Shown here: positions 764 to 9,228 of the stretch, in pieces
Layout: the number at the start of each line of letters is the position of its first letter
How positions within the stretch are numbered: position 1 is the stretch's first letter
Virus record (IMG/VR): IMGVR_UViG_2690316233_000014
DNA length: 11,758 bases
Strand: one strand, 5' to 3'
Origin: a virus
Lineage: Duplodnaviria; Heunggongvirae; Uroviricota; Caudoviricetes
Notes under the pieces: generated by a model
What the model saw: the letters and a program-made list of their open reading frames with translations, nothing else
Databases searched by the model: none
What the model was told of the DNA's origin: nothing
Translations under genes and position numbers: made by a program

Positions 764-1171
764 TTATCTTTTATAGCCTTGCCCCTTCCTGGCCAGCGCC
801 CTGATGGCCGGGCGTGCCAACACCATATTTTGGCAATGATGAATTGCCCGGCAAAATTCATCTCTACCCATTGGATGCTCAACTGGCAATGTTAAATACA
901 GGTTCCATGCGTCGCCTAAAAGTTGGGCTATCTTTTGTTCTTCAGATGTCAGCAAGCAAGCGGTATCCGTAAAATAATCATACTTTTCATGTATGTTATT
1001 TAACGGTTTTGTCTGTAGTGCAGCCTGAGCTATACGGTATGCCTGAAGCATACGGGCGTCGTTGATATCCATTCCGAACGGAATTTCTGATGATTGTGAC
1101 TCTGCATCTTCAAGCCTGGCAATTTCTTTACGTAAGAAGTATTTCAACTCTTGTTTCTGTTTTCTGTTCAT
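764..1171 (-). CDS. hypothetical protein, 135 aa
   Basis: ATG at 1171-1169 with AAGGA about 8 nt upstream, TAA at 764-766, and its own upstream and downstream hairpins. Translation is protein-like but I do not recognise a family. Confidence 0.6.
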   Translation of the reverse strand: MNRKQKQELKYFLRKEIARLEDAESQSSEIPFGMDINDARMLQAYRIAQAALQTKPLNNIHEKYDYFTDTACLLTSEEQKIAQLLGDAWNLYLTLPVEHPMGRDEFCRAIHHCQNMVLARPAIRALARKGQGYKR

Positions 1172-1269: not shown

Positions 1270-1581
1270 TTATTCGGGAAATAACGCCCGGATATTTCCG
1301 GCCATCTGACTGGTTATCTGTGCGGTTGATACTGGCTGTGACGCGGGGCATTCTGTCCTGGTTTGTGTCACTGATAACGCCTCATCGTCAGCCCATGCAG
1401 CCAGTCGGTAAGCCTCTGCTGGATTCATTTTCAGAAGTGCCAGCCCGGCCAGAAAAGCCACGCGTTGGCCGCTTTTGCGGGCTTCTGGTGTAAGGCTGTC
1501 CAGCCAGGCGCATGCTTCGCTTTCGTTCTTGACGGCCGCAGGCTTCAGATAGAAACTTATCCGTCTGGTTGGTGTCGTCAT
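1270..1581 (-). CDS. parR: ParR-like partition adaptor / centromere-binding RHH protein, 103 aa
   Basis: Internal ATG at 1581-1579 preferred over the track start at 1716 (which overlaps parM by 130 nt); strong AAGGAG 7 nt upstream. Sits immediately downstream of parM. Translation MTTPTRRISFYLKP...LDSLTPEARKSG...LAGLAL...LFPE parallels plasmid R1 ParR as I recall it. Confidence 0.75.
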   Translation of the reverse strand: MTTPTRRISFYLKPAAVKNESEACAWLDSLTPEARKSGQRVAFLAGLALLKMNPAEAYRLAAWADDEALSVTQTRTECPASQPVSTAQITSQMAGNIRALFPE

Positions 1582-1585
1582 TGGT

Positions 1586-2545
1586 TTACTCCTTGTCCAT
1601 TGCGTACAGCCCATTAACCAGAGCAAACTGTGGCACCCCGTACGCGATGAAAGTCGCATTAACTCCGCAGGCTTCGCGGATAGCGGGTGCCACAATCTCC
1701 GCCCCGCCACCGACAACCATCACCCGACCGTAACCCGAAAAACCCGCCAGCGCGCGGATCACGCGTTGTTTCAGTGTTTCTTCCTTTTCACGAATAACCG
1801 CCATCAGGCTGGCGTAATGCGCGTCATTGTGGATGTGCTGGCGCAGCCAGGCTTCATCATGGCGATGTTCGATAATGGTATTGGCGATGTGGTGACTGGT
1901 GCGCATACCGTTAGTGGCCATCACCGACAGTACGGCATCGGCCATCAGAGAAACGCCTACGTGTGGATCGCAAAACACCTGGCTGATACCTGCCAGTTGC
2001 CCCTGAACCTTTGCCACATCCAGCGTGGTTCCGCCCAAATCCACAATCAGCAGGGATTCAAACGGACTCATGTCAGCCAGTGCCTTAAAGCCAGCCGGAA
2101 TGGATTCAGGCATAACCCGCACGTTACGGATAGTGAATGCTTCGCCGTTCTGGTACTCCACCGGGCGCATGACGTTCGCTTTTTTGCGGTTGATGTTGGC
2201 CATGTCCGGCTGTGCGTTTGTGTCGAAATACTCGCTCAGTGGCAGGGTGACAACCACATCCACCTCCTGTGGCGTGATGCCTGATTTGACCAGCGCGTGA
2301 TGAATGGCAATGACATTCACATCGCTGTACTGGTATTGCGTGTCGGTCGTCTGGACAAAGCGATCGCTGACCGGATCAAAACCATAGCGCACGCCATCAA
2401 GCATGTAGTTCGCGGGCTGCGTGCCACCGAACGGCGCAGACCATTCCGACTTGAAGCTGTTCGGGCTGATGGCGTTGCGGCGTTCGCCGTTCTCAGTCCA
2501 TGCCAGCTTGATGTTGGTGGAGCCGTCGTCGATACAAATTTTCAT
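1586..2545 (-). CDS. parM: ParM/StbA actin-like segregation ATPase, 319 aa
   Basis: ATG at 2545-2543 with AAGGA upstream, TAA at 1586-1588. N-terminus MKICIDDGSTNIKLAW (actin-fold phosphate-1 motif) plus SPNSF, YQYSDVNV, IHHAL, VMPESIPAG, IVDLGGTTLD and VVGGGAE blocks match plasmid R1 ParM closely as I recall it. Confidence 0.9.
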   Translation of the reverse strand: MKICIDDGSTNIKLAWTENGERRNAISPNSFKSEWSAPFGGTQPANYMLDGVRYGFDPVSDRFVQTTDTQYQYSDVNVIAIHHALVKSGITPQEVDVVVTLPLSEYFDTNAQPDMANINRKKANVMRPVEYQNGEAFTIRNVRVMPESIPAGFKALADMSPFESLLIVDLGGTTLDVAKVQGQLAGISQVFCDPHVGVSLMADAVLSVMATNGMRTSHHIANTIIEHRHDEAWLRQHIHNDAHYASLMAVIREKEETLKQRVIRALAGFSGYGRVMVVGGGAEIVAPAIREACGVNATFIAYGVPQFALVNGLYAMDKE

Positions 2546-2621: not shown

Positions 2622-5462
2622 TCATATATCGCTGCGCGTTTTTTGGTCATTTACGGGATTCGTGAGTCCCGTTTCTGTCTGTTTTTTGTTTCCGCTGGTC
2701 AGGCCACCCCGCAGCAGGTCTGCTTTGCGGCTGGCGCGTTCAGTGGTTTCACTGATTCTCTGTGCGTGCTCTGCGTCGCGGATGGCGCGCAGCATGTCAG
2801 AAAGCACGGTAACGGGTGTTTTCATGGTGTTCTGGTCCTGCTGAAGTGTGGATGCCAGGCGTGCGGCGGCTTCAGGGTCTGATGCCCCCAGCTGTGCCAG
2901 ATAGCTGGCGACCGGGTTATGGCGGATCTCCGTGCTGCTTACGCCATGATTACGGCTCAGGCGCTGCCAGAGCTGCGTGATTCGGCTGTCCGGGCGGGTA
3001 TCCGGTTTGCGTACAATTTCAAATCCCTGCGGTGCAATGATGCTGCCGTCAACGTACAGACTGCCGCCCCGTAACAGGTGCTGCATCTGTTGTTCACCGA
3101 TATGCAGGCCGAGAGATTCAGCAGACTCCCGCCATTCTTTAGCGAGTAATTCGTGGTTATCAGGCAAAGGCCGCTGCTGTTTGCGGCTCTGTGTCCAGCT
3201 CTGCATTTCATCACTGCTGTTTTTTGCCTGTTTGTCACGAAGCGAATGCATCAGCGCCCGGCGTTCGTGCCGTTTCAGTGAGCGCATCCATTCGTTCACT
3301 TCAACGCCGTCAGGGAGCTGCGGCCACGGTGCTGGCCGTTCTTCCGGCTGTTCTGTCCCGTTGTTGTCCGTTTCCTGTACACGGGGACAGTTATTGCCAC
3401 GAGTCCAAGGGGCGGCAGGGCCGCCCTGAAGGTCAAAACCATTTTCGCGGGCACTGTCTTCCGCTTCCGGTTTGCGTCTTACCAGCTTCCAGTTATCCGG
3501 ATGCGTGCACACACGGGAGGATTCCCCGATGAGTGGTGACCAGATCCCGTAAATCTGTACGCTCTGTTCGCCGTAATCGTTCAGCTCATCGGCGAGGTCG
3601 TAGGCGGTGCGAATCAGGTAGTCCTTGCGTGGAACAAGTACGCCGCCCTGTTTCTCTATGTAGGTGGCAAAACATCCGGCATCAGCGGCGGCAAGAACCG
3701 CATCCATTGCGTCATCCTTCAGCCGTTGCGGGCCTTCCGGGTTGCGTGCCATCTGGCTGGCAAGGCGGCGCAGTTCACGCCATACCTGGCGGGAGGGGAT
3801 GCCAAAGAACTGGAACTGGCGGACCCGGTGAAGGCGCGCCCAGCCGATGGCGCGTTCCACGCTCTCGGCCATTGATTTTCCGGTTTCGTGGTCAACGCGT
3901 GGCTTGCCCGTTTTCGGGTCGATGCCATCCACGGCACGGCTGTCCAGGTTTTTCCCGATGTAGGTGGCGATGTAGCTGGTCGGTGTGCCTTTTGAGCCGT
4001 CGACGTACTCCGCCTTAAAGCGTGGGGTAATATCATCACCCAGCTCGTGACGATCTTCCTGAATGGCAATATCGCGGGTGTGGGACACAATAGTGTCGAT
4101 TTCTTCCGGATGAGCAAAGACCATCATATGCCAGTGCACGGTGCCGTCATGGTGAGGCTCCACCGTGCGGATGCCATACCAGCGCAGGCCGTCGCGGTTC
4201 AGTTTCTTGCGGACCGCCGCAAAAAACGTGTTAACCAGGTAATCGCTGGAGTCGCGCATGGTGGCCCCGTTCCATTTGGGATTCGGATGACCGTTCTCTG
4301 TTGTGGCGTGGTATTTTGACGGGCAGGTGACAGTCAGAAACACCGCTTTGTCGCCACGGGCTTCGGCCAGAAGTTCCAGCCCCTTCATGGTGGCCATCAT
4401 TTCTGCCTTACGGTGAACCGGGTTACTTACTCCCGCGTAATACACTGTCTCGAGATCAATCGTGAACCCATCTTCGTTTTCCAGCATGAAACTTTTCAGG
4501 AAATCGCGTGTTTTCTCGCGCTGTGCGCGAAACTCGCTTAATGCGTCCTGGCTCAGATAGGGCGATGTTTTTCTGGAAACCAGACAGGCGGCGCGGAGTT
4601 GTTCTTCTCTCCACTCGCAACGTAACAGCCACAGTTTGCGTTTCCACCATTCCGCACAGGTCAGGCGAAGGATTGCGCCCGGCAGCAGCTCCGTGTCCGG
4701 TTCGTTCCTCCGGTCTTTATCTGTTGTCAGTGCGTCATAATGTGGAGGCATGATGTGCAGGTGTAACGCCATGCGGGCCAGCATCTGATACGCCTTCAGC
4801 GTTACATCCATGGTCAGTTCGCCATCGGTCGCGCCAAAGCCATCGCAGAGTTTTTCGAAGGTGCTGCTGAACATCGCCGCCGTCATGGTGGCCAGCGTCT
4901 GTATCTGGTGTTTGTTGAGCTGCGGCAGGTAAAGCAAATCGTCCAGGCGTTCGCGTCCGGCAAGGGAGCGATAACCAGGTGTCAGCCAGCGCCCGTCAGT
5001 GCGATCCAGACGTTCGAATATTTTGCGCAGGGTTCCGCGTGTATAGCGTTCCGCCTGCCAGCTCTTTTTGCCTTTCTGACGATCGGCTTCCTGCTTCTTG
5101 CGCAGGAAAGAGAGGTGGCGGCTCAGAGGTTCTCGCAGATAAACGGGAAGCGCCTTCAGTGTGGCAAAGGCACGGGCTACCGGGTCTTGTTCTGTTGCCC
5201 GGCGCTTACTGATGATGCTCTGTGCCAGCTTTTCACGCTGTCCGGCTTCCTCAAGGGATGCCATGAGTTTTTTACCCATGGCGGATTGTGCGAAAAAGGC
5301 TTCTTCCTTCGCTTCCTGTTCTTCCTGTGCCCTTTTGTCCGCCTCAAGGTAGCAACGGATGGCGCGTTGCAGGTCGGTTTCAGTTTCCTGCCTGCGCTCC
5401 GTAAATCTGGCCGGATCAATAGCTGGTCGTGGTTCATTCCAGCTCCATGCAAACGCACTCAT
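2622..5462 (-). CDS. rolling-circle replication initiator, HUH endonuclease of the P2 gpA / phiX174 A type, about 946 aa
   Basis: HUH motif VHWHMMVF (codons near 4128-4136) and paired active-site tyrosines in SYIATYIGK (YxxxY, near 3960-3976). No Walker A motif, so not a P4 alpha primase-helicase. ATG at 5462-5460 forms an ATGA overlap with the upstream stop; the track start at 5489 is GTG. Confidence 0.85.
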   Translation of the reverse strand: MSAFAWSWNEPRPAIDPARFTERRQETETDLQRAIRCYLEADKRAQEEQEAKEEAFFAQSAMGKKLMASLEEAGQREKLAQSIISKRRATEQDPVARAFATLKALPVYLREPLSRHLSFLRKKQEADRQKGKKSWQAERYTRGTLRKIFERLDRTDGRWLTPGYRSLAGRERLDDLLYLPQLNKHQIQTLATMTAAMFSSTFEKLCDGFGATDGELTMDVTLKAYQMLARMALHLHIMPPHYDALTTDKDRRNEPDTELLPGAILRLTCAEWWKRKLWLLRCEWREEQLRAACLVSRKTSPYLSQDALSEFRAQREKTRDFLKSFMLENEDGFTIDLETVYYAGVSNPVHRKAEMMATMKGLELLAEARGDKAVFLTVTCPSKYHATTENGHPNPKWNGATMRDSSDYLVNTFFAAVRKKLNRDGLRWYGIRTVEPHHDGTVHWHMMVFAHPEEIDTIVSHTRDIAIQEDRHELGDDITPRFKAEYVDGSKGTPTSYIATYIGKNLDSRAVDGIDPKTGKPRVDHETGKSMAESVERAIGWARLHRVRQFQFFGIPSRQVWRELRRLASQMARNPEGPQRLKDDAMDAVLAAADAGCFATYIEKQGGVLVPRKDYLIRTAYDLADELNDYGEQSVQIYGIWSPLIGESSRVCTHPDNWKLVRRKPEAEDSARENGFDLQGGPAAPWTRGNNCPRVQETDNNGTEQPEERPAPWPQLPDGVEVNEWMRSLKRHERRALMHSLRDKQAKNSSDEMQSWTQSRKQQRPLPDNHELLAKEWRESAESLGLHIGEQQMQHLLRGGSLYVDGSIIAPQGFEIVRKPDTRPDSRITQLWQRLSRNHGVSSTEIRHNPVASYLAQLGASDPEAAARLASTLQQDQNTMKTPVTVLSDMLRAIRDAEHAQRISETTERASRKADLLRGGLTSGNKKQTETGLTNPVNDQKTRSDI
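2651..2688 (+). repeat. hairpin repeat copy 2: TTTACGGGATT-CGTG-AGTCCCGT followed by a T-rich tail
   Basis: About 35 of 42 positions identical to copy 1 and 73 bp away. Stem ACGGGATT/AGTCCCGT with one G-U pair. Lies inside the last ~20 codons of the Rep ORF. Confidence 0.5.
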
Positions 5463-5848
5463 GGCTGGTATCCCGTCACGCGCTGCCACTCCTGCGAGAA
5501 GAGGGCGGAAAGGCGGTTAAATTCAGCGGTGTATTCACTCAGCGAGGCACACCCGCCAGCAGTGCGATGCGCCAGCATTGCTGCAAATACGGAGGCCGGG
5601 GAGTCGTAATACGCCAGCAGTGATTCGCCGTGCGGTGTCAGGCAGTGTAACGCCAGTCCGTGTGGTGTGAAATCCACGCGGTAGCAGTCGTCTACTGTGA
5701 AATAAAGGGTGTCTGCATTCTCCGGTTTTGTGGTGCGTGCTCTGTTGTCACGACCACGGATGTAGAGATCAAATAACCCCTGAAGAACGGGAGCCAGACG
5801 GGTGTCCTGTGTGCGCACCCATCTTGTGAAGTCATGAGCGTCAATCAT
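5459..5848 (-). CDS. hypothetical protein, 129 aa, translationally coupled to Rep
   Basis: ATG at 5848-5846, TGA at 5459-5461 overlapping the Rep ATG. Family not recognised. Confidence 0.6.
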   Translation of the reverse strand: MIDAHDFTRWVRTQDTRLAPVLQGLFDLYIRGRDNRARTTKPENADTLYFTVDDCYRVDFTPHGLALHCLTPHGESLLAYYDSPASVFAAMLAHRTAGGCASLSEYTAEFNRLSALFSQEWQRVTGYQP

Positions 5849-5920
5849 GCTGCAATTCTCTTTACTACAGATGTGCGAAGGCCTCCCGCCGCAAGGTGCA
5901 GGAAAGGCCCGGAACAGGAA

Positions 5921-6151
5921 TTAATGGAGTTTGTTTTGCTGCTGGATGAGCTGTTGAAGCTCGTGCAGATCATCCGCCAGATAGCTGAAAACAGAGGCGG
6001 AATAAATGTTTGATAGTGCGTGGCTGCGCTCATGCAGCATATTGATGTGCATGATTTGCGCGACGCGTGATGCGCGGGAAAGTCTGCGGTTGATTTCAGT
6101 CTGGATGTGACGACGCTCCGCGATAGCGCGGTGCTGTTTGCGGTCTGCCAT
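5921..6151 (-). CDS. small basic helical protein, 76 aa
   Basis: ATG at 6151-6149 with AGAGG 8 nt upstream, TAA at 5921-5923. Translation MADRKQHRAIAERRHIQTEINRRLSR... is protein-like; preferred over the overlapping Ser/Arg-rich 205-aa track ORF. Confidence 0.55.
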   Translation of the reverse strand: MADRKQHRAIAERRHIQTEINRRLSRASRVAQIMHINMLHERSHALSNIYSASVFSYLADDLHELQQLIQQQNKLH

Positions 6152-6194
6152 GGTGTGGCCTCTTTGCTCGGTGATAGAAATAACTCACCATCCA

Positions 6195-6386
6195 GAGTTG
6201 AGAATCTCGGGGTGGCGAGACGTACAGGGTTCTCAACACCGGAGAGCAAAGAATCCGGCCCGACCGAAGTCGGCCCCGTACGCCCCGCCATAATTCTGAC
6301 GCGAAAAAGACGTGGCAATACAGTACGCACAAAAAAACCGCTTGCGCGGTTATGCGCTTTGCTCTGTATCGGGTTGAGAATCCCGG
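6195..6386 (-). ncRNA. candidate cis-regulatory or small-RNA leader with three related boxes
   Basis: On the + strand, box A GAGTTGAGAATCTCGG (6195-6210) and box C GGGTTGAGAATCCCGG (6371-6386) are 14/16 identical. Box B AGGGTTCTCAACACCGG (6226-6242) is complementary to both over 10-12 bp. A GGCCGAC-UUCG-GUCGGCC hairpin (6257-6276, - strand RNA) and a terminator lie between them. No ORF with a plausible RBS. Confidence 0.4.
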
Positions 6387-6455
6387 CACCCGTTTTATGA
6401 GGTGCAGCGGAAATGTAACCTGACCGATTGAGGCATGGCAAGCGGTTTTTTTGTG
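6328..6455. repeat. perfect 18-bp inverted repeat CACAAAAAAACCGCTTGC / GCAAGCGGTTTTTTTGTG flanking a 92-bp segment
   Basis: Left arm 6328-6345 and right arm 6438-6455 are exact reverse complements. The left arm is half of the - strand terminator; the right arm with CCGATTG...CAAGCGG plus a T7 run resembles a weaker + strand terminator. Confidence 0.55.
6330..6352 (-). terminator. intrinsic terminator or attenuator inside the leader
   Basis: On the - strand: AACCGC-GCAA-GCGGTT followed by seven U residues (GNRA-type tetraloop). Located upstream of the 76-aa, 129-aa and Rep genes. Confidence 0.45.
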
Positions 6456-6473
6456 TGTGCATGTTCTGGTTTC

Positions 6474-6773
6474 TTACTGGTTCAGAAAAAAATCAAAAAC
6501 GTTATCGATGCGTTGCAGCAGCTCTTGCTGCATTGCTTCCGGCGTTTCCGGTTCGCCAGGTGCCCCCAGCGTTGCGCAGAAATCAGCGATTTCATGATGG
6601 AGCGTCAGGCGAATGGCAGGAGCCGTGGTTCTGGCGTGCTCCAGCTCATTCAGCAGTGCCAGCACAGCAGACGGCGAGAGCATTGCGCGAAATGCCAGTA
6701 ATTTTTGAGGCGTTGCCATTCGTTGCAGGGCAAATGCCAGTTCGCGTAGCTTCTGGTGGTTGATGGTGCTCAT
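6474..6773 (-). CDS. hypothetical protein, 99 aa
   Basis: ATG at 6773-6771 in an ATGA overlap with the upstream stop; TAA at 6474-6476. Family not recognised. Confidence 0.6.
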   Translation of the reverse strand: MSTINHQKLRELAFALQRMATPQKLLAFRAMLSPSAVLALLNELEHARTTAPAIRLTLHHEIADFCATLGAPGEPETPEAMQQELLQRIDNVFDFFLNQ

Positions 6774-7036
6774 GCTCTGGCTTCCTTCAGTAGCTGGTTA
6801 AACATGTGAGTAAGTGGATTGCTACACCCGAACGGCATCGGGTTTACGTGGTAAGAAGCCTGGCCTCCTGTTTTGCGAGCGCGACCACCTGTGCTGCGGT
6901 TTGTTCTGATGACTAAGCCGCCGCGCCAAAGTCGGCGTAACTCAGCATTAATGGCTGTGGTTGGGGTGTTCAGTGCTGCGGCGATTTCTCCGCCGCTACA
7001 ACCCGGATGTGTAGTGATGTAGTCCAGAATGGTCAT
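6770..7036 (-). CDS. probable winged-helix DNA-binding protein, 88 aa
   Basis: ATGA overlaps at both ends. The segment SGGEIAAALNTPTTAINAELRRLWRGGLVIRT has a wHTH-like pattern; assignment is by pattern only. Confidence 0.55.
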   Translation of the reverse strand: MTILDYITTHPGCSGGEIAAALNTPTTAINAELRRLWRGGLVIRTNRSTGGRARKTGGQASYHVNPMPFGCSNPLTHMFNQLLKEARA

Positions 7037-7236
7037 TTGCGTGGCTCCTGTACCTGTCGGATAAGATTCACCCGCGCCACGTTGGTGGCGCAGAAGTAAG
7101 TGCCGTCAGTGAGGTAGATGTGGTGTGCATCCTTTTCCGAACGATGTTTGTCGATAGTGGTAATCAGGCGTTCGTCGACCTCGTATTCGCGCCCTCTGGA
7201 GGTAAAGCGAATGACGGGAAAATGCTTAATTGCCAT
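7033..7236 (-). CDS. hypothetical protein, 67 aa
   Basis: ATG at 7236-7234 with AAGGGGG upstream, TGA at 7033-7035 overlapping the next start. Confidence 0.55.
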   Translation of the reverse strand: MAIKHFPVIRFTSRGREYEVDERLITTIDKHRSEKDAHHIYLTDGTYFCATNVARVNLIRQVQEPRK

Positions 7237-7259
7237 TGCGCCCCCTTTGTCCAGTAACC

Positions 7260-7676
7260 CTATGCGTTAAATACGGCACGTTGCGCGTCATCAATGAATA
7301 CAGCTTGAGATCGTTCTATCAGGCGGAGATTTGTCAGAAGCTCTGACTCTTTTGTGTGGTAAGGCGTTATCAGGTATTTGCCGTGCAGTTCGGCAATAAT
7401 GGTGTATTGCGTCATTATTGCCGAACCAAGAATGTAAATGCGGCGTCCAATGCTGGACGGATTCATGGCTGCAACTGTTGACTGTGTTTTAAGAGTGTCG
7501 ATTTCTTTGCTCTGTTCCTCAATAATTTTGGCTGCTTCAGAGGGGGCTATTGCGATGGTCAGTGCGTAAAGCGCTGCCATATGTTGATTATCTTTCTGGG
7601 CTGCCCTGGACAGCTTGTCTTGCTCTGCTGACACTATTTTTAATGTATTGATAATATTTTTTTCTCTTGCGTTCAT
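7260..7676 (-). CDS. hypothetical protein, 138 aa
   Basis: ATG at 7676-7674 with GGAG 8 nt upstream, preceded by about 100 nt of non-coding sequence containing repeats. Confidence 0.6.
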   Translation of the reverse strand: MNAREKNIINTLKIVSAEQDKLSRAAQKDNQHMAALYALTIAIAPSEAAKIIEEQSKEIDTLKTQSTVAAMNPSSIGRRIYILGSAIMTQYTIIAELHGKYLITPYHTKESELLTNLRLIERSQAVFIDDAQRAVFNA

Positions 7677-7725
7677 TTTATATCTCCGTTATTTACGTGT
7701 GCGAATACCTCCGCGAATGCGGATA

Positions 7726-7754
7726 GTTTTCAGGTTTTCAGGTTTTCAGGTTTA
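7726..7754. repeat. tandem octamer GTTTTCAG, about 3.6 copies
   Basis: Copies at 7726-7733, 7734-7741 and 7742-7749 plus a partial copy. Sits in the gap between the 37-aa ORF stop and the 138-aa start; the palindrome TCCGCGAATGCGGA (7709-7722) is adjacent. Confidence 0.6.
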
Positions 7755-7776
7755 ATCTGGTGTTTTGTTTAAGCTG

Positions 7777-7890
7777 TTATTTGTCAGTGAAAAAGCGTTC
7801 AATCTTTTTTACTGAATGAATAATTCGCATAATCCCAATGGCGCAGGCCACCGAAATAATCAGAACAAGCCATGAGATAAATATACTCAT
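7777..7890 (-). CDS. small membrane peptide, 37 aa, absent from the ORF track
   Basis: ATG at 7890-7888 overlaps the TGA of the upstream 80-aa ORF (ATGA); TAA at 7777-7779. Hand translation MSIFISWLVLIISVACAIGIMRIIHSVKKIERFFTDK: one transmembrane helix and a basic C-tail. Confidence 0.5.
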   Translation of the reverse strand: MSIFISWLVLIISVACAIGIMRIIHSVKKIERFFTDK

Positions 7891-8129
7891 GCGATATTCC
7901 CCAGCTTATACGGTTCAATGTGTTCCCCGCATTCTGCGGCACAGATCAGCTCGGAAAGTTCGTTCAGTGCATCCAGATCATCAGCGTAAAAAGCAACGTC
8001 ATACAAACTCCGGATTGCCCTGGTCAATGAATCACGGGCTGCATGTTCAGCATGAGCGCCTGATGCACTTAAGCGAAAATAAAATCGTTCAAGTGCTTTG
8101 TTAATGAGAGTTTTATATTCTTTGCCCAT
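7887..8129 (-). CDS. hypothetical protein, 80 aa
   Basis: ATG at 8129-8127, TGA at 7887-7889; fits the - strand operon and is coupled to the downstream small ORF. Preferred over the antisense + strand ORF 7838..8104. Confidence 0.55.
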   Translation of the reverse strand: MGKEYKTLINKALERFYFRLSASGAHAEHAARDSLTRAIRSLYDVAFYADDLDALNELSELICAAECGEHIEPYKLGNIA

Positions 8130-8140
8130 CGCAACGCCCT

Positions 8141-8419
8141 TTAATCTGCTTTCTGAATTTCAGCTTCTGAATCCATACAAATAATTTCGATATAGGGTTC
8201 ATCGCCATTAACCTGACGTGCCTTTTCAGCTTCGCTAATGATTTCTCGTACGGTCTGGTACGGAAGCTCCACAGTCAGGCGCGTACCGTTCAGATAAACG
8301 TAAGTAGCTGCGTTTTTTTCGGATGGAACAACTCCGTCAATTGCTGATGCGCGTAATAACAGTTCACCGCGAAAATCAATAAAACGGATAAATACACCTT
8401 GTGCATGCTCTTTGGTCAT
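8141..8419 (-). CDS. hypothetical protein, 92 aa
   Basis: Internal ATG at 8419-8417 preferred: it lies 10 nt after the upstream stop with AGGTG in between, whereas the track start at 8479 is TTG and overlaps the upstream gene by 50 nt. Confidence 0.55.
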   Translation of the reverse strand: MTKEHAQGVFIRFIDFRGELLLRASAIDGVVPSEKNAATYVYLNGTRLTVELPYQTVREIISEAEKARQVNGDEPYIEIICMDSEAEIQKAD

Positions 8420-8429
8420 AAAGCACCTG

Positions 8430-8780
8430 TTATAAATCAGCCTGTTTAATAAAACTTTGCCCGCGAAGCAGACGATCAACCGTGCGAAGTGCTTCGTATA
8501 ATGTGAAATCCTGCCCGAAGTGATTGTCGCCGCAGTTCAATGCAAAAATGCGGTTTCCGGTAAATGGATTGCGTGGGCATTTGTGGACCACGATTCCAGC
8601 TTTCTCAATCAGCCAGGCATGCTCGCCGATTTGTTTTACAGCGTGGCCATCCGGTGTTGCGTGCGTCTCGTTCAGGTTATAGCGACTGTTACTACGTGAT
8701 GCACTGGTAGCGACGTGGTGTACATGGCGTTCTACGCCATTACGAAATTTGGAGTATGGATTATTAGCGTTTTTTTTCAT
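8430..8780 (-). CDS. hypothetical protein, 116 aa
   Basis: ATG at 8780-8778, TAA at 8430-8432. Verified codon by codon against the track translation. Family not recognised. Confidence 0.6.
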   Translation of the reverse strand: MKKNANNPYSKFRNGVERHVHHVATSASRSNSRYNLNETHATPDGHAVKQIGEHAWLIEKAGIVVHKCPRNPFTGNRIFALNCGDNHFGQDFTLYEALRTVDRLLRGQSFIKQADL

Positions 8781-8801
8781 GATGGTGCTCTGTTCATTGT
8801 T

Positions 8802-9005
8802 TTAGCTGTTAGCCAAAGCGTCTTTTAACATCGCCACAAGGTTTACTTCAGGCTTTTCCATTTTGGCGCGTTTGGGGCGGATAATAATTCGACCGTCAGC
8901 CAACATCTTTTTGCATGTATTAAGAGGGATACCTGTTATCTCTGCATATTTCTGCAGGGATACATAGGGGGCATTCACATTGATATTGATGGTTATACCT
9001 GACAT
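8802..9005 (-). CDS. Cox/Apl-like small HTH protein (candidate excisionase / lytic-side regulator), 67 aa
   Basis: Strong AGGAGG 8 nt upstream of the ATG at 9005-9003. The segment PYVSLQKYAEITGIPLNTCKKMLADGRI follows the pattern of P2 Cox (IPYQEFAKLIGKSTGAVRRMIDKGKLPVI, as I recall it), and its position in the operon divergent from the repressor agrees. Confidence 0.6.
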   Translation of the reverse strand: MSGITININVNAPYVSLQKYAEITGIPLNTCKKMLADGRIIIRPKRAKMEKPEVNLVAMLKDALANS

Positions 9006-9021
9006 CCCACTAGCCTCCTGA

Positions 9022-9228
9022 TCAGGAAGATTTGTTTTGTTCTTTCTGGGTTAGCTCTAGGCCGCGAAGGAAGATCATGCGCGCCATGTTAGAGGATGAG
9101 CGTTGTTCTTTAGCTGCCATTTCATCAATGACGGCTCGCTCCTCGAGGGACAGCCGAAGTGCCAGTCTTGGACCTGTGGCGGTGTTACGCGGAATGCGTG
9201 ATCTGGTATCGTGAAGAACTTGTTTCAT
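9022..9228 (-). CDS. ribbon-helix-helix (Arc/CopG-type) DNA-binding protein, 68 aa
   Basis: RLALRLSLEERAVIDEMAAKEQRSSSNMARMIFLRGLE fits the beta-strand, helix, helix RHH pattern. It is the first gene of the leftward operon; no Shine-Dalgarno before the ATG at 9228, so the mRNA may be leaderless. Confidence 0.6.
   Translation of the reverse strand: MKQVLHDTRSRIPRNTATGPRLALRLSLEERAVIDEMAAKEQRSSSNMARMIFLRGLELTQKEQNKSS

Follow-up and report, generated by a model that had tools for sequence, protein, structure and literature searches.

The 11,758-nt stretch of viral DNA analysed here (the window) carries a replication gene on its minus strand, and this gene very probably encodes the gpA homologue of a temperate prophage of the P88 type, related to P2, with a translation start at ATG 5462, an origin inside the gene and a modular tail. 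The ORF is real, and its product (Rep) is a P2 A-type HUH rolling-circle initiator of a P88-like prophage (Xuanwuvirus, Peduoviridae). Rep is already known as a routinely annotated prophage replication endonuclease, and the gene is of little importance in itself, being a matter of routine annotation and carried by roughly one in four complete E. coli genomes. As by-products for annotation, the Rep start can be set at the ATG, and the gene can be described as containing a nucleotide-invariant ori-like element. Residues 815-917 represent a conserved, uncharacterised piece of this very widespread protein.

Identity of Rep and its translation start

The ORF list and its translations contain the ORF 2622..5489 on the minus strand, which codes for 955 aa counted from a GTG and for 946 aa from ATG 5462. 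The coding sequence, its N-terminal and catalytic parts and its upstream neighbour are located as follows.

2622..5462, minus strand: coding sequence of Rep, a gpA-type replication endonuclease, 946 aa and a stop codon, ATG at 5462; based on the ORF list, Pfam, PHROG and annotated relatives
5142..5462, minus strand: N-terminal variable module, Rep codons 1-107, mosaic relative to P88; based on megablast and dN
3936..4910, minus strand: Phage_GPA catalytic domain, residues 185-509; full-profile Pfam match
4128..4136, minus strand: HUH motif H443-W-H445, in EPHHDGTVHWH; invariant in aligned homologues
3960..3974, minus strand: active-site tyrosine pair Y497-x3-Y501 (YIATYIGKN); invariant in alignments
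5459..5848, minus strand: upstream ORF, 129 aa, phrog_3237 (function unknown); its TGA overlaps the Rep ATG as ATGA
5463..5489, minus strand: 27-nt interval from GTG 5489 to ATG 5462; encodes the C-terminus of the upstream ORF product and no part of Rep

The initial annotation had assigned the protein to the gpA type, which is correct. Pfam PF05840 (Phage_GPA) was matched over profile positions 1-321 of 321 with a score of 440.1 bits (curated cut-off 31.4; E 5.4e-132). Matches were also obtained to PHROG 6857 and, with E 5e-277, to PHROG 91 ('nicking at origin of replication'). Megablast revealed 97% nucleotide identity with phage PhiR44_2 and 96-97% with P88 and its relatives. The window is syntenic with P88 and PhiR44_2, and the 2841-nt Rep CDS is annotated identically in PhiR44_2 and, by PGAP, in NZ_CP148288.1. 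Integrase, repressor and Cox-like genes are found upstream of Rep, an early-operon context that is P2-like.

The HUH and Y-x3-Y motifs showed no variation across alignments of 18 and 20 homologues, and they lie near the middle of the protein, as had been noticed initially, at 47-53% of the 946 aa. For P2 A, the use of two tyrosines in motif C is described in a portion of PMC3986222 that cites Odegrip and Haggard-Ljungquist (2001). The central Phage_GPA domain of Rep is predicted to carry the HUH metal site (H443/H445) together with two tyrosines (Y497/Y501). If it works like P2 A, Rep would nick one DNA strand at an origin within its own coding sequence, would then be covalently joined to the DNA via a tyrosine and prime rolling-circle replication, and may act mainly in cis. 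Two structure models of Rep had mean pLDDT values of 63 and 59, a low to moderate confidence that is due to shallow alignments. A Foldseek search of the PDB using the full model (mean pLDDT 58.9) gave HUH nucleases (AAV Rep OBD, Helitron, NS1 and TnpA-REP) as the top matches, all weak (E 0.01-0.1), and a phmmer search against all PDB sequences returned 0 matches at E<=1. The N-terminal part of Rep is mosaic: megablast identity to P88 begins only at query position 560 (window ~5141), and dN over codons 1-107 is ~0.87 against P88 and the relatives L006 and L009, compared with 0.012-0.021 in the core.

The choice of start codon had initially been left open between GTG 5489 and ATG 5462. Both candidates exist, and the ATG does overlap the stop of the upstream ORF as ATGA, a 4-nt overlap that is also found in the relatives L002, L010, L014 and L015. 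As judged from the sequence comparisons, Rep translation begins not at GTG 5489 but at ATG 5462, where it is coupled to termination of the upstream ORF; annotations, codon changes and in-frame stops of relatives favour this start. A start at GTG 5489 would yield a 955-aa Rep with nine additional N-terminal residues. This GTG defines the longest ORF because it is the first in-frame start following a stop, and its homologous codon in L015 is ATG. However, a Shine-Dalgarno-like AGGAG directly touches the GTG with zero spacer, and the nine codons evolve in the frame of the upstream ORF: between the window and L014 and L015, seven of the eight changed codons of the 27-nt interval are synonymous in that frame, whereas eight of eight are non-synonymous in the Rep frame. 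Furthermore, in-frame stops lie 3-4 codons 5' of the homologous start in the genes of the P88 type and of Hafnia (in P88-type rep genes, a TAA three codons before their own ATG), and GenBank and PGAP chose the ATG in all annotated relatives examined. We regard the GTG start as highly improbable.

Protein length and the origin-like element

A length of 946 aa is normal in the P88-type lineage. The description of Rep as unusually long holds relative to P2-like A, which is shorter by ~66 aa and ~115 aa in two regions, but same-length homologues are abundant. The 90%-identity cluster with a 946-aa representative comprises 16,881 sequences, and further clusters have 941- and 940-aa representatives; a tail domain with a known family or fold, which the initial annotation had also considered, was not found. 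The Rep tail DNA is present in 1372 of 5426 complete E. coli genomes (about a quarter), all annotated 'replication endonuclease'. The parts of the gene relevant to its length are given below.

3384..3446, minus strand: candidate origin (ori / nick region), codons 673-693, core CCTTGGACTCGTGGCAATAACTG at 3388-3410
3021..3383, minus strand: post-ori tail shared across the family, residues 694-814; consists of a disordered linker, helices and, around LLRGG, a small alpha/beta unit
2712..3020, minus strand: lineage-specific C-terminal extension, residues 815-917; predicted helical, not in P2-like, 186-like or Gegavirus proteins

After the invariant NNC motif, 254 residues follow in the window Rep, compared with 139 in P2-like, 123 in 186-like and 123 in Gegavirus A proteins, and therefore the true C-terminal excess is ~115-130 aa. 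The several hundred extra C-terminal residues reported initially were an overstatement, as the stretch from residue 510 to about 814 can be aligned to A proteins of the P2-like, 186-like and Gegavirus types. Before the NNC motif and the origin, the excess over P2-like A is ~66 aa, mostly an N-terminal insert. The C-terminal region had also been described as rich in charged and Gln residues. Its DEKR content is 28.1% (residues 510-946) versus 29.2% in the whole protein, so the former description fails; Gln shows only a mild rise, 6.9% versus 5.2%, reaching 10% in residues 701-800.

The most likely origin is at codons 673-693 (window 3384-3446), where the nucleotide sequence is invariant. Zero substitutions were found over these 21 codons in all five comparisons, including that with the 59%-identical Hafnia homologue, in whose gene 63 of 63 nt of the element are the same and dS elsewhere is ~1.5. 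Ten codons of the region are identical in Gegavirus despite an aa identity of 44%, and the ori-like 23-mer occurs as one copy in each of 8 related loci. The peptide encoded by the element lies in a stretch of pLDDT ~26-30; an invariance at the nucleotide level would explain the 'invariant' peptide motif APWTRGNNCP within a region predicted to be disordered.

For the origin comparison, we used as query a 20-mer that we take to be the P2 ori sequence; string searches of the literature found no paper containing it. In the P2-like A gene, the 20-mer was located at the codons for APRSPVNNC, where it aligns with the window element, and a 3-mismatch form was found in the rep gene of a K139-type Vibrio phage. 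These two occurrences are consistent with PMC3986222, which places the P2 ori inside gene A and states that PV94, a Vibrio phage related to K139, has an almost identical one.

The C-terminal tail and the downstream partition cassette

In the alignment, the tail after the origin is modular, with residues 694-814 common to P2/186-type A proteins, residues 815-917 as a helical extension, and residues 918-946 as a run-on in which translation may continue into the upstream 42-nt repeats of a parMR cassette until a stop is reached. The features at and beyond the end of Rep are as follows.

2622..2711, minus strand: terminal 29 codons plus stop, residues 918-946, linked to the cassette; probably incidental read-through
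2647..2688, minus strand: 42-nt repeat copy 1, palindrome 2653-2672; within the final Rep codons
2574..2615, minus strand: 42-nt repeat copy 2, palindrome 2580-2599; situated after the Rep stop and before the start of parM
1270..2545, minus strand: partition cassette, parM (1586-2545) and stbB/parR-like gene (1270-1581); the repeats travel with the cassette

Residues 694-814, alignable with P2-like, 186-like and Gegavirus A proteins, have a dN/dS of 0.13-0.30 and a model pLDDT of ~80 at 770-820. The extension 815-917 is under purifying selection, with a dN/dS of 0.13-0.33, including against the Hafnia homologue. Both structure models predict helices at 826-876 and 883-919/920. P88-like phages have the extension, as does a Hafnia phage; the first half of the extension is also found in some other lineages. 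An exhaustive HMMER search with residues 790-946 against 1.84 billion representative proteins gave only 21 matches, and those inspected were tails or fragments of Rep, apart from two spurious matches to repetitive proteins (P0142 and P0148). A word-indexed search with the same residues revealed close relatives only, mostly fragments. Neither Pfam (whole protein) nor NCBIfam (whole protein and tail) revealed a family beyond Phage_GPA, and a Foldseek search of BFVD with the tail fold gave nothing at E<=0.001. Our best guess is that the extension may form a protein-protein contact or oligomerisation surface. It is unlikely, in our view, that it represents a new accessory module supplying a function that is separate in P2, for example host helicase or loader recruitment replacing gpB; if it did, its position just past the embedded origin would be relevant to action in cis.

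The final Rep codons had been reported to overlap a hairpin repeat, and the 42-nt copy at 2647-2688 confirms this. The true C-terminus had consequently been doubted. The stop at 2622-2624 is real and common to P88 and PhiR44_2, but the last ~29 residues do vary with the downstream cargo: after a conserved '...LL' the Rep C-termini of relatives diverge, and in L006 and L009 the C-terminus switches together with the cargo. Residues 918-946 change in this way because reading runs into the 42-nt repeat of the parMR cassette. In Hafnia, the repeat is read in another frame and the Rep stop sits in the palindrome loop. Residues 921-946 have pLDDT values below 50 (block means 35-40 in both models) and are predicted to be disordered, and the dN/dS of the terminal 29 codons is based on 3-5 substitutions. 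Residues 918-946 are probably incidental read-through and unlikely to have a role at the protein level. Evolutionarily, the last ~29 codons are part of the cargo cassette, and therefore length differences at the Rep C-terminus should not be taken as functional.

The cassette matched StbA_N (E 1.8e-82), ParM_N (E 2.9e-68) and Plasmid_stab_B (E 1.7e-24) in Pfam and 'partition protein' in PHROG. It combines an actin-like ParM ATPase with a small ParR/StbB adaptor in one operon, as in type II ParMRC systems. The two 42-nt repeats are strongly non-random (0 copies expected by chance). Located 5' of parM, they are conserved with parMR in Hafnia, where the same layout of 2 x 42 nt with 73-nt spacing co-occurs with parMR, and they are missing from non-par relatives. 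On the + strand the repeats score as terminators, and they are unlike the T-rich iterons that precede parM on an IncL/M plasmid. We infer that the repeats are probably a parC-like site.

Other readings of the 3' region were weighed against this. The two 3' hairpin repeats could be the Rep recognition or origin site instead of an element of the par cassette, since HUH initiators frequently recognise hairpins close to the nick site and the repeats are located at the end of rep and are non-random. However, L006 and L009, which are 87-88% identical and share the same 23-mer, have no repeats, and their rep 3' end and downstream sequence are different. The repeats instead accompany parMR in Hafnia, whose Rep shares only 59% identity although the intergenic DNA is highly conserved, and according to PMC3986222 the P2 origin maps within gene A, not past it. 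An origin at the repeats thus appears quite improbable. Slightly less credit still is due to the idea that the extension 815-917 is an added domain tied functionally to parMR, for example as a replication-partition link in a phage-plasmid lifestyle. In its favour, parMR lies directly downstream of Rep, Hafnia carries the same tail plus parMR, P88 is listed as a putative phage-plasmid (PMC7969092), and a 34.4-kb circular 'plasmid' record with the same phage gene order shows 99.6% identity over the 1.43-kb parMR/Rep-3' query. However, the extension to about residue 907-917 also occurs in L006 and L009, whose downstream cargo is not parMR, and 1533 of the 1535 places of the tail DNA in complete E. 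coli genomes are chromosomal.

The long C-terminus might also be an artefact, with a downstream gene fused through a lost stop or frameshift, or non-coding sequence being read. The tail has neither a Pfam or NCBIfam family nor a fold match, and many of its database entries are fragments. Against this, thousands of genomes carry an uninterrupted ORF of the same length class, the selection on residues 815-917 extends to the Hafnia comparison, and residues 694-814 have alignable counterparts in P2-like and 186-like A. Short matches with a named source carry the label 'partial', those inspected were Rep fragments or full Rep, and no standalone homologue was seen. An artefact is extremely improbable, and we retain the reading of a genuine gpA homologue with a modular tail.

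Comparison with known systems

P2 A (PF05840) and the window Rep have in common the full-length Pfam match, the invariant HUH and Y-x3-Y motifs and alignable residues ~91-814, at about 31-32% aa identity. In the P2-like genome, A is the last large gene of the early operon, as is Rep in the window, and an ori-like sequence lies at homologous codons (A-P-x-x-x-x-N-N-C) in both. The ori core is CTTGGACTCGTGGCAATAACTG in the window Rep versus CTCGGAGTCCTGTCAATAACTG in P2 A, 7 of 23 positions being different. P2 A has 765 aa in the P2-like record versus 946 aa, with ~66 residues fewer before the ori codons and ~115 fewer after them. P2 encodes gpB, whereas tblastn searches for a gpB homologue in the window and the P88, PhiR44_2 and pZ1323 loci gave no credible match (best E 0.011, on the wrong strand).

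The Reps of 186 (A)/Eganvirus and of Gegavirus (Klebsiella) have the core and the family-wide tail to about residue 814, like the window Rep, and the Gegavirus Rep contains a 23-nt ori-like core identical to that of the window at 43-44% aa identity. However, the 186-like (740 aa) and Gegavirus (804 aa) Reps end 123 residues past NNC and do not have residues 815-946, and their downstream cargo (DinI and others) differs from that of the window. Among Xuanwuvirus members, the PhiR44_2 replication endonuclease is equal in length to the window Rep, with 97.9% aa identity. The P88 replication endonuclease (940 aa) is about 90% identical overall and has the same tail, stop and downstream parM/parR, whereas a different mosaic module, accompanied by a different upstream ORF, makes up its first ~107 codons.

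The partition cassette resembles the stbAB type II ParMRC systems of R1/NR1 in its actin-like ParM, its StbB/ParR-like protein and the repeated DNA immediately 5' of parM; the parC of R1 is located immediately upstream of parM. Set against R1/NR1-type ParMRC loci, no sigma-70-like promoter for parM was detected between the window repeats. ParMRC plasmids carry arrays of ~11-bp iterons, whereas the window has two 42-nt units, each with a 16-20-bp palindrome, 73 nt apart.

Family, start codon and length of Rep

The minus-strand ORF at 2622..5489 was present in the ORF list and translation, and encodes 955 aa from GTG 5489 or 946 aa from ATG 5462. Residues 185-509 of the encoded Rep (numbered from ATG 5462) cover the full Pfam Phage_GPA profile (E 5.4e-132), and PHROG 91 ('nicking at origin of replication') and PHROG 6857 match the protein nearly end to end. 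The catalytic motifs, HUH as H443-W-H445 and the tyrosines Y497/Y501, fall at 47-53% of the 946 aa, in agreement with the initial annotation, which had placed these motifs near the middle of the protein. At the DNA level, identity is 97% with Escherichia phage PhiR44_2 and 96-97% with P88 and its relatives (Xuanwuvirus, Peduoviridae). The window additionally encodes an integrase, a repressor and a Cox-like protein, with an early operon in P2-like order, and GenBank and PGAP label the same gene 'replication protein' or 'replication endonuclease'. Rep is an ordinary P88-type gpA that has been annotated before. By tblastn, the P2 replication gene B had no homologue in the early operon (5459-9228, minus strand; best E 0.011, on the wrong strand).

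Of the two starts initially considered, sequence comparison identifies the coupled ATG 5462 as the Rep start. Within the sequence ATGA, this ATG overlaps the TGA that closes the upstream ORF (5459..5848), and both PhiR44_2 and the PGAP record NZ_CP148288.1 begin a 2841-nt CDS at the ATGA-coupled ATG. The loci L014 and L015 from related phages or prophages, two further lineages with the same Rep N-terminal type, carry the same upstream ORF of 129 aa, overlapping Rep by 4 nt. When the 27 nt from GTG 5489 to ATG 5462 were compared among the window, L014 and L015, eight codons were changed; read in the upstream frame, seven of the eight changes are synonymous, whereas in the Rep frame every one is non-synonymous. 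In P88-type genes the ATG is preceded, three codons ahead, by an in-frame TAA, in the Hafnia prophage gene an in-frame stop precedes the start by four codons, and AGGAG lies directly against GTG 5489 with no spacer. These observations together support ATG 5462.

Together, the 129-aa ORF upstream of Rep (phrog_3237) and the initial ~107 codons of Rep make up a mosaic unit (5142-5848, minus strand), whereas the P88 equivalent consists of a 121-aa ORF and another Rep N-terminus. The phrog_3237 ORF accompanies the matching N-terminus in three lineages, a hint that the two may be functionally paired.

Rep had initially been described as unusually long. It does exceed the A proteins of P2-like (765 aa), 186-like (740 aa) and Gegavirus (804 aa) phages, but 946 aa is the normal length within its own lineage: a 946-aa representative heads a 90%-identity cluster of 16,881 sequences, and the next clusters have representatives of 941 and 940 aa. 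The Rep tail DNA occurs in 1372 of 5426 complete E. coli genomes, annotated 'replication endonuclease' throughout among the matches listed. The proposed several hundred extra C-terminal residues were an overestimate, because residues 510 to ~814 align with the P2-like, 186-like and Gegavirus A proteins, so most of the post-catalytic region is family-wide. After the invariant NNC motif, Rep has 254 residues versus 139 (P2-like), 123 (186-like) and 123 (Gegavirus), giving a real C-terminal excess of ~115-130 aa; before the motif it has ~66 more residues than P2-like A, mostly an N-terminal insert. Nor is the C-terminal region enriched in charged residues as had been suggested (28.1% in residues 510-946 versus 29.2% in the whole protein), although Gln is mildly elevated (6.9% versus 5.2%).

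The modular tail and the downstream cargo

In alignment, the Rep tail is modular. Residues 694-814 are common to P2/186-type proteins and include a small alpha/beta unit around LLRGG in the predicted model (pLDDT ~80). The P2-like, 186-like and Gegavirus A proteins lack residues 815-917. The first half of this segment (to ~870) also occurs in proteins of some other lineages (P0058, P0061, P0064 and P0147), while the second half, a long helix, is restricted to P88-like and Hafnia proteins. Its dN/dS of 0.13-0.33, versus 0.05-0.14 in the core, shows that it is constrained as protein, more loosely than the core. Searches of protein families, solved-structure sequences and folds returned no match to residues 815-917, and when the tail was searched exhaustively against 1.84 billion representative proteins, only 21 hits came up, those inspected being Rep tails, Rep fragments or repetitive false hits. 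Our guess is that this uncharacterised segment may serve in protein contacts or oligomerisation. A functional link to the downstream partition genes is unlikely, because the same extension adjoins other cargo.

Different loci carry different cargo in the interval from Rep to the portal gene, which is a hot spot for such insertions.

Cargo between Rep and portal in the window and in loci of related phages or prophages
Window, ~1-2620: parMR
L009, 6432-9751: AAA ATPase and Peptidase_S8 pair
L006, 6279-8806: three unknown reverse-strand genes
L015, 5137-6860: Fic and Phd-like antitoxin
L014, 4990-6917: IS transposase

A 135-aa ORF in the window (764-1171, minus strand) matches phrog_13916, labelled 'DNA ligase', with its C-terminal half; in P88, the ORF in the corresponding place after parR is labelled 'carboxylate--amine ligase', with a note naming ClpX, and an L015 ORF downstream of Rep matches zf-C4_ClpX. 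These inconsistent annotations probably describe a small zinc-finger protein.

Repeats at the Rep 3' end

Two direct repeats flank the Rep stop:
2647-2688: 42-nt copy 1, overlapping the last Rep codons
2574-2615: 42-nt copy 2, directly past the Rep stop and upstream of parM

The last codons thus overlap the hairpin, as initially noted, and the annotated stop is real. Rep sequence past the conserved '...LL' (918-946) varies with the downstream cargo: in L006 and L009, which lack the repeats, Rep ends in 'HRTR' and 'QDKGNSEKKK', respectively. In Hafnia, the Rep frame reads the palindrome shifted by one base and terminates within the palindrome loop, and residues 921-946 have pLDDT below 50 in both models (block means 31-40). 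Considering these observations, the final ~29 residues look like a by-product of translation continuing into a DNA element that belongs to the par cassette.

A 20-nt palindrome (GGGAYT-n4-RAATCCC) lies within each repeat, and no such copies are expected by chance. The same layout, 2 x 42 nt exactly 73 nt apart ahead of parM, is found in Hafnia (L008:6214-6328). The repeats accompany parM (Pfam StbA_N, ParM_N) and a StbB/ParR-like gene, and are absent from relatives without parMR. In R1-type loci, parC occupies the matching position; repeat blocks upstream of one plasmid parM are also ~72-73 nt apart, but differ in sequence. We infer that the repeats are probably a parC-like site. On the plus strand they also score as intrinsic terminators, and no sigma-70-like promoter was found between them. 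A role as the Rep origin is unlikely: L006 and L009 retain the origin-like core within rep, while their rep 3' ends and downstream regions differ and have no repeats.

The window carries a plasmid-type ParM/StbB (ParMR) partition cassette (1270-2545, minus strand) within a P2-like prophage. The 34.4-kb circular 'plasmid' NZ_CP148288.1 is 99.6% identical over a 1.43-kb parMR/Rep-3' query and has the same phage gene order, and P88 has been listed among putative phage-plasmids (PMC7969092). Despite the plasmid-type cassette, 1533 of the 1535 places of the tail DNA in complete E. coli genomes are chromosomal and 2 are plasmid.

A candidate origin inside rep

Codons 673-693 (3384-3446, minus strand, 63 nt) had zero substitutions in five pairwise comparisons, including that with the Hafnia gene, which has 59% protein identity and dS ~1.5 elsewhere. 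Versus Hafnia and Gegavirus, this is the gene's most conserved nucleotide stretch, and eight related loci each contain a single copy of its 23-nt core. The encoded peptide lies in the least confident part of the model (pLDDT 26-30). The NNC peptide motif appears to be invariant because the constraint acts on DNA.

The P2 ori 20-mer, which we take to be GCGCCTCGGAGTCCTGTCAA, occurs once in the P2-like A gene, where it codes for A-P-R-S-P-V-N. The homologous Rep codons (AAPWTRGNNCP) are GCCCCTTGGACTCGTGGCAATAACTG. A K139-type Vibrio phage rep gene contains a version with 3 mismatches, consistent with the origin of PV94, a K139-related Vibrio phage, being nearly identical to that of P2 (PMC3986222). 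A passage of the same paper, citing Liu and Haggard-Ljungquist 1994, situates the P2 origin in gene A. We read 3384-3446, from its sequence and its position homologous to P2 ori, as a candidate cis-acting origin, at which site-specific nicking may occur. By analogy with P2, the HUH motif and tyrosines of Rep would nick this internal origin, Rep would become covalently joined to the nicked strand, and it would drive rolling-circle replication in cis.
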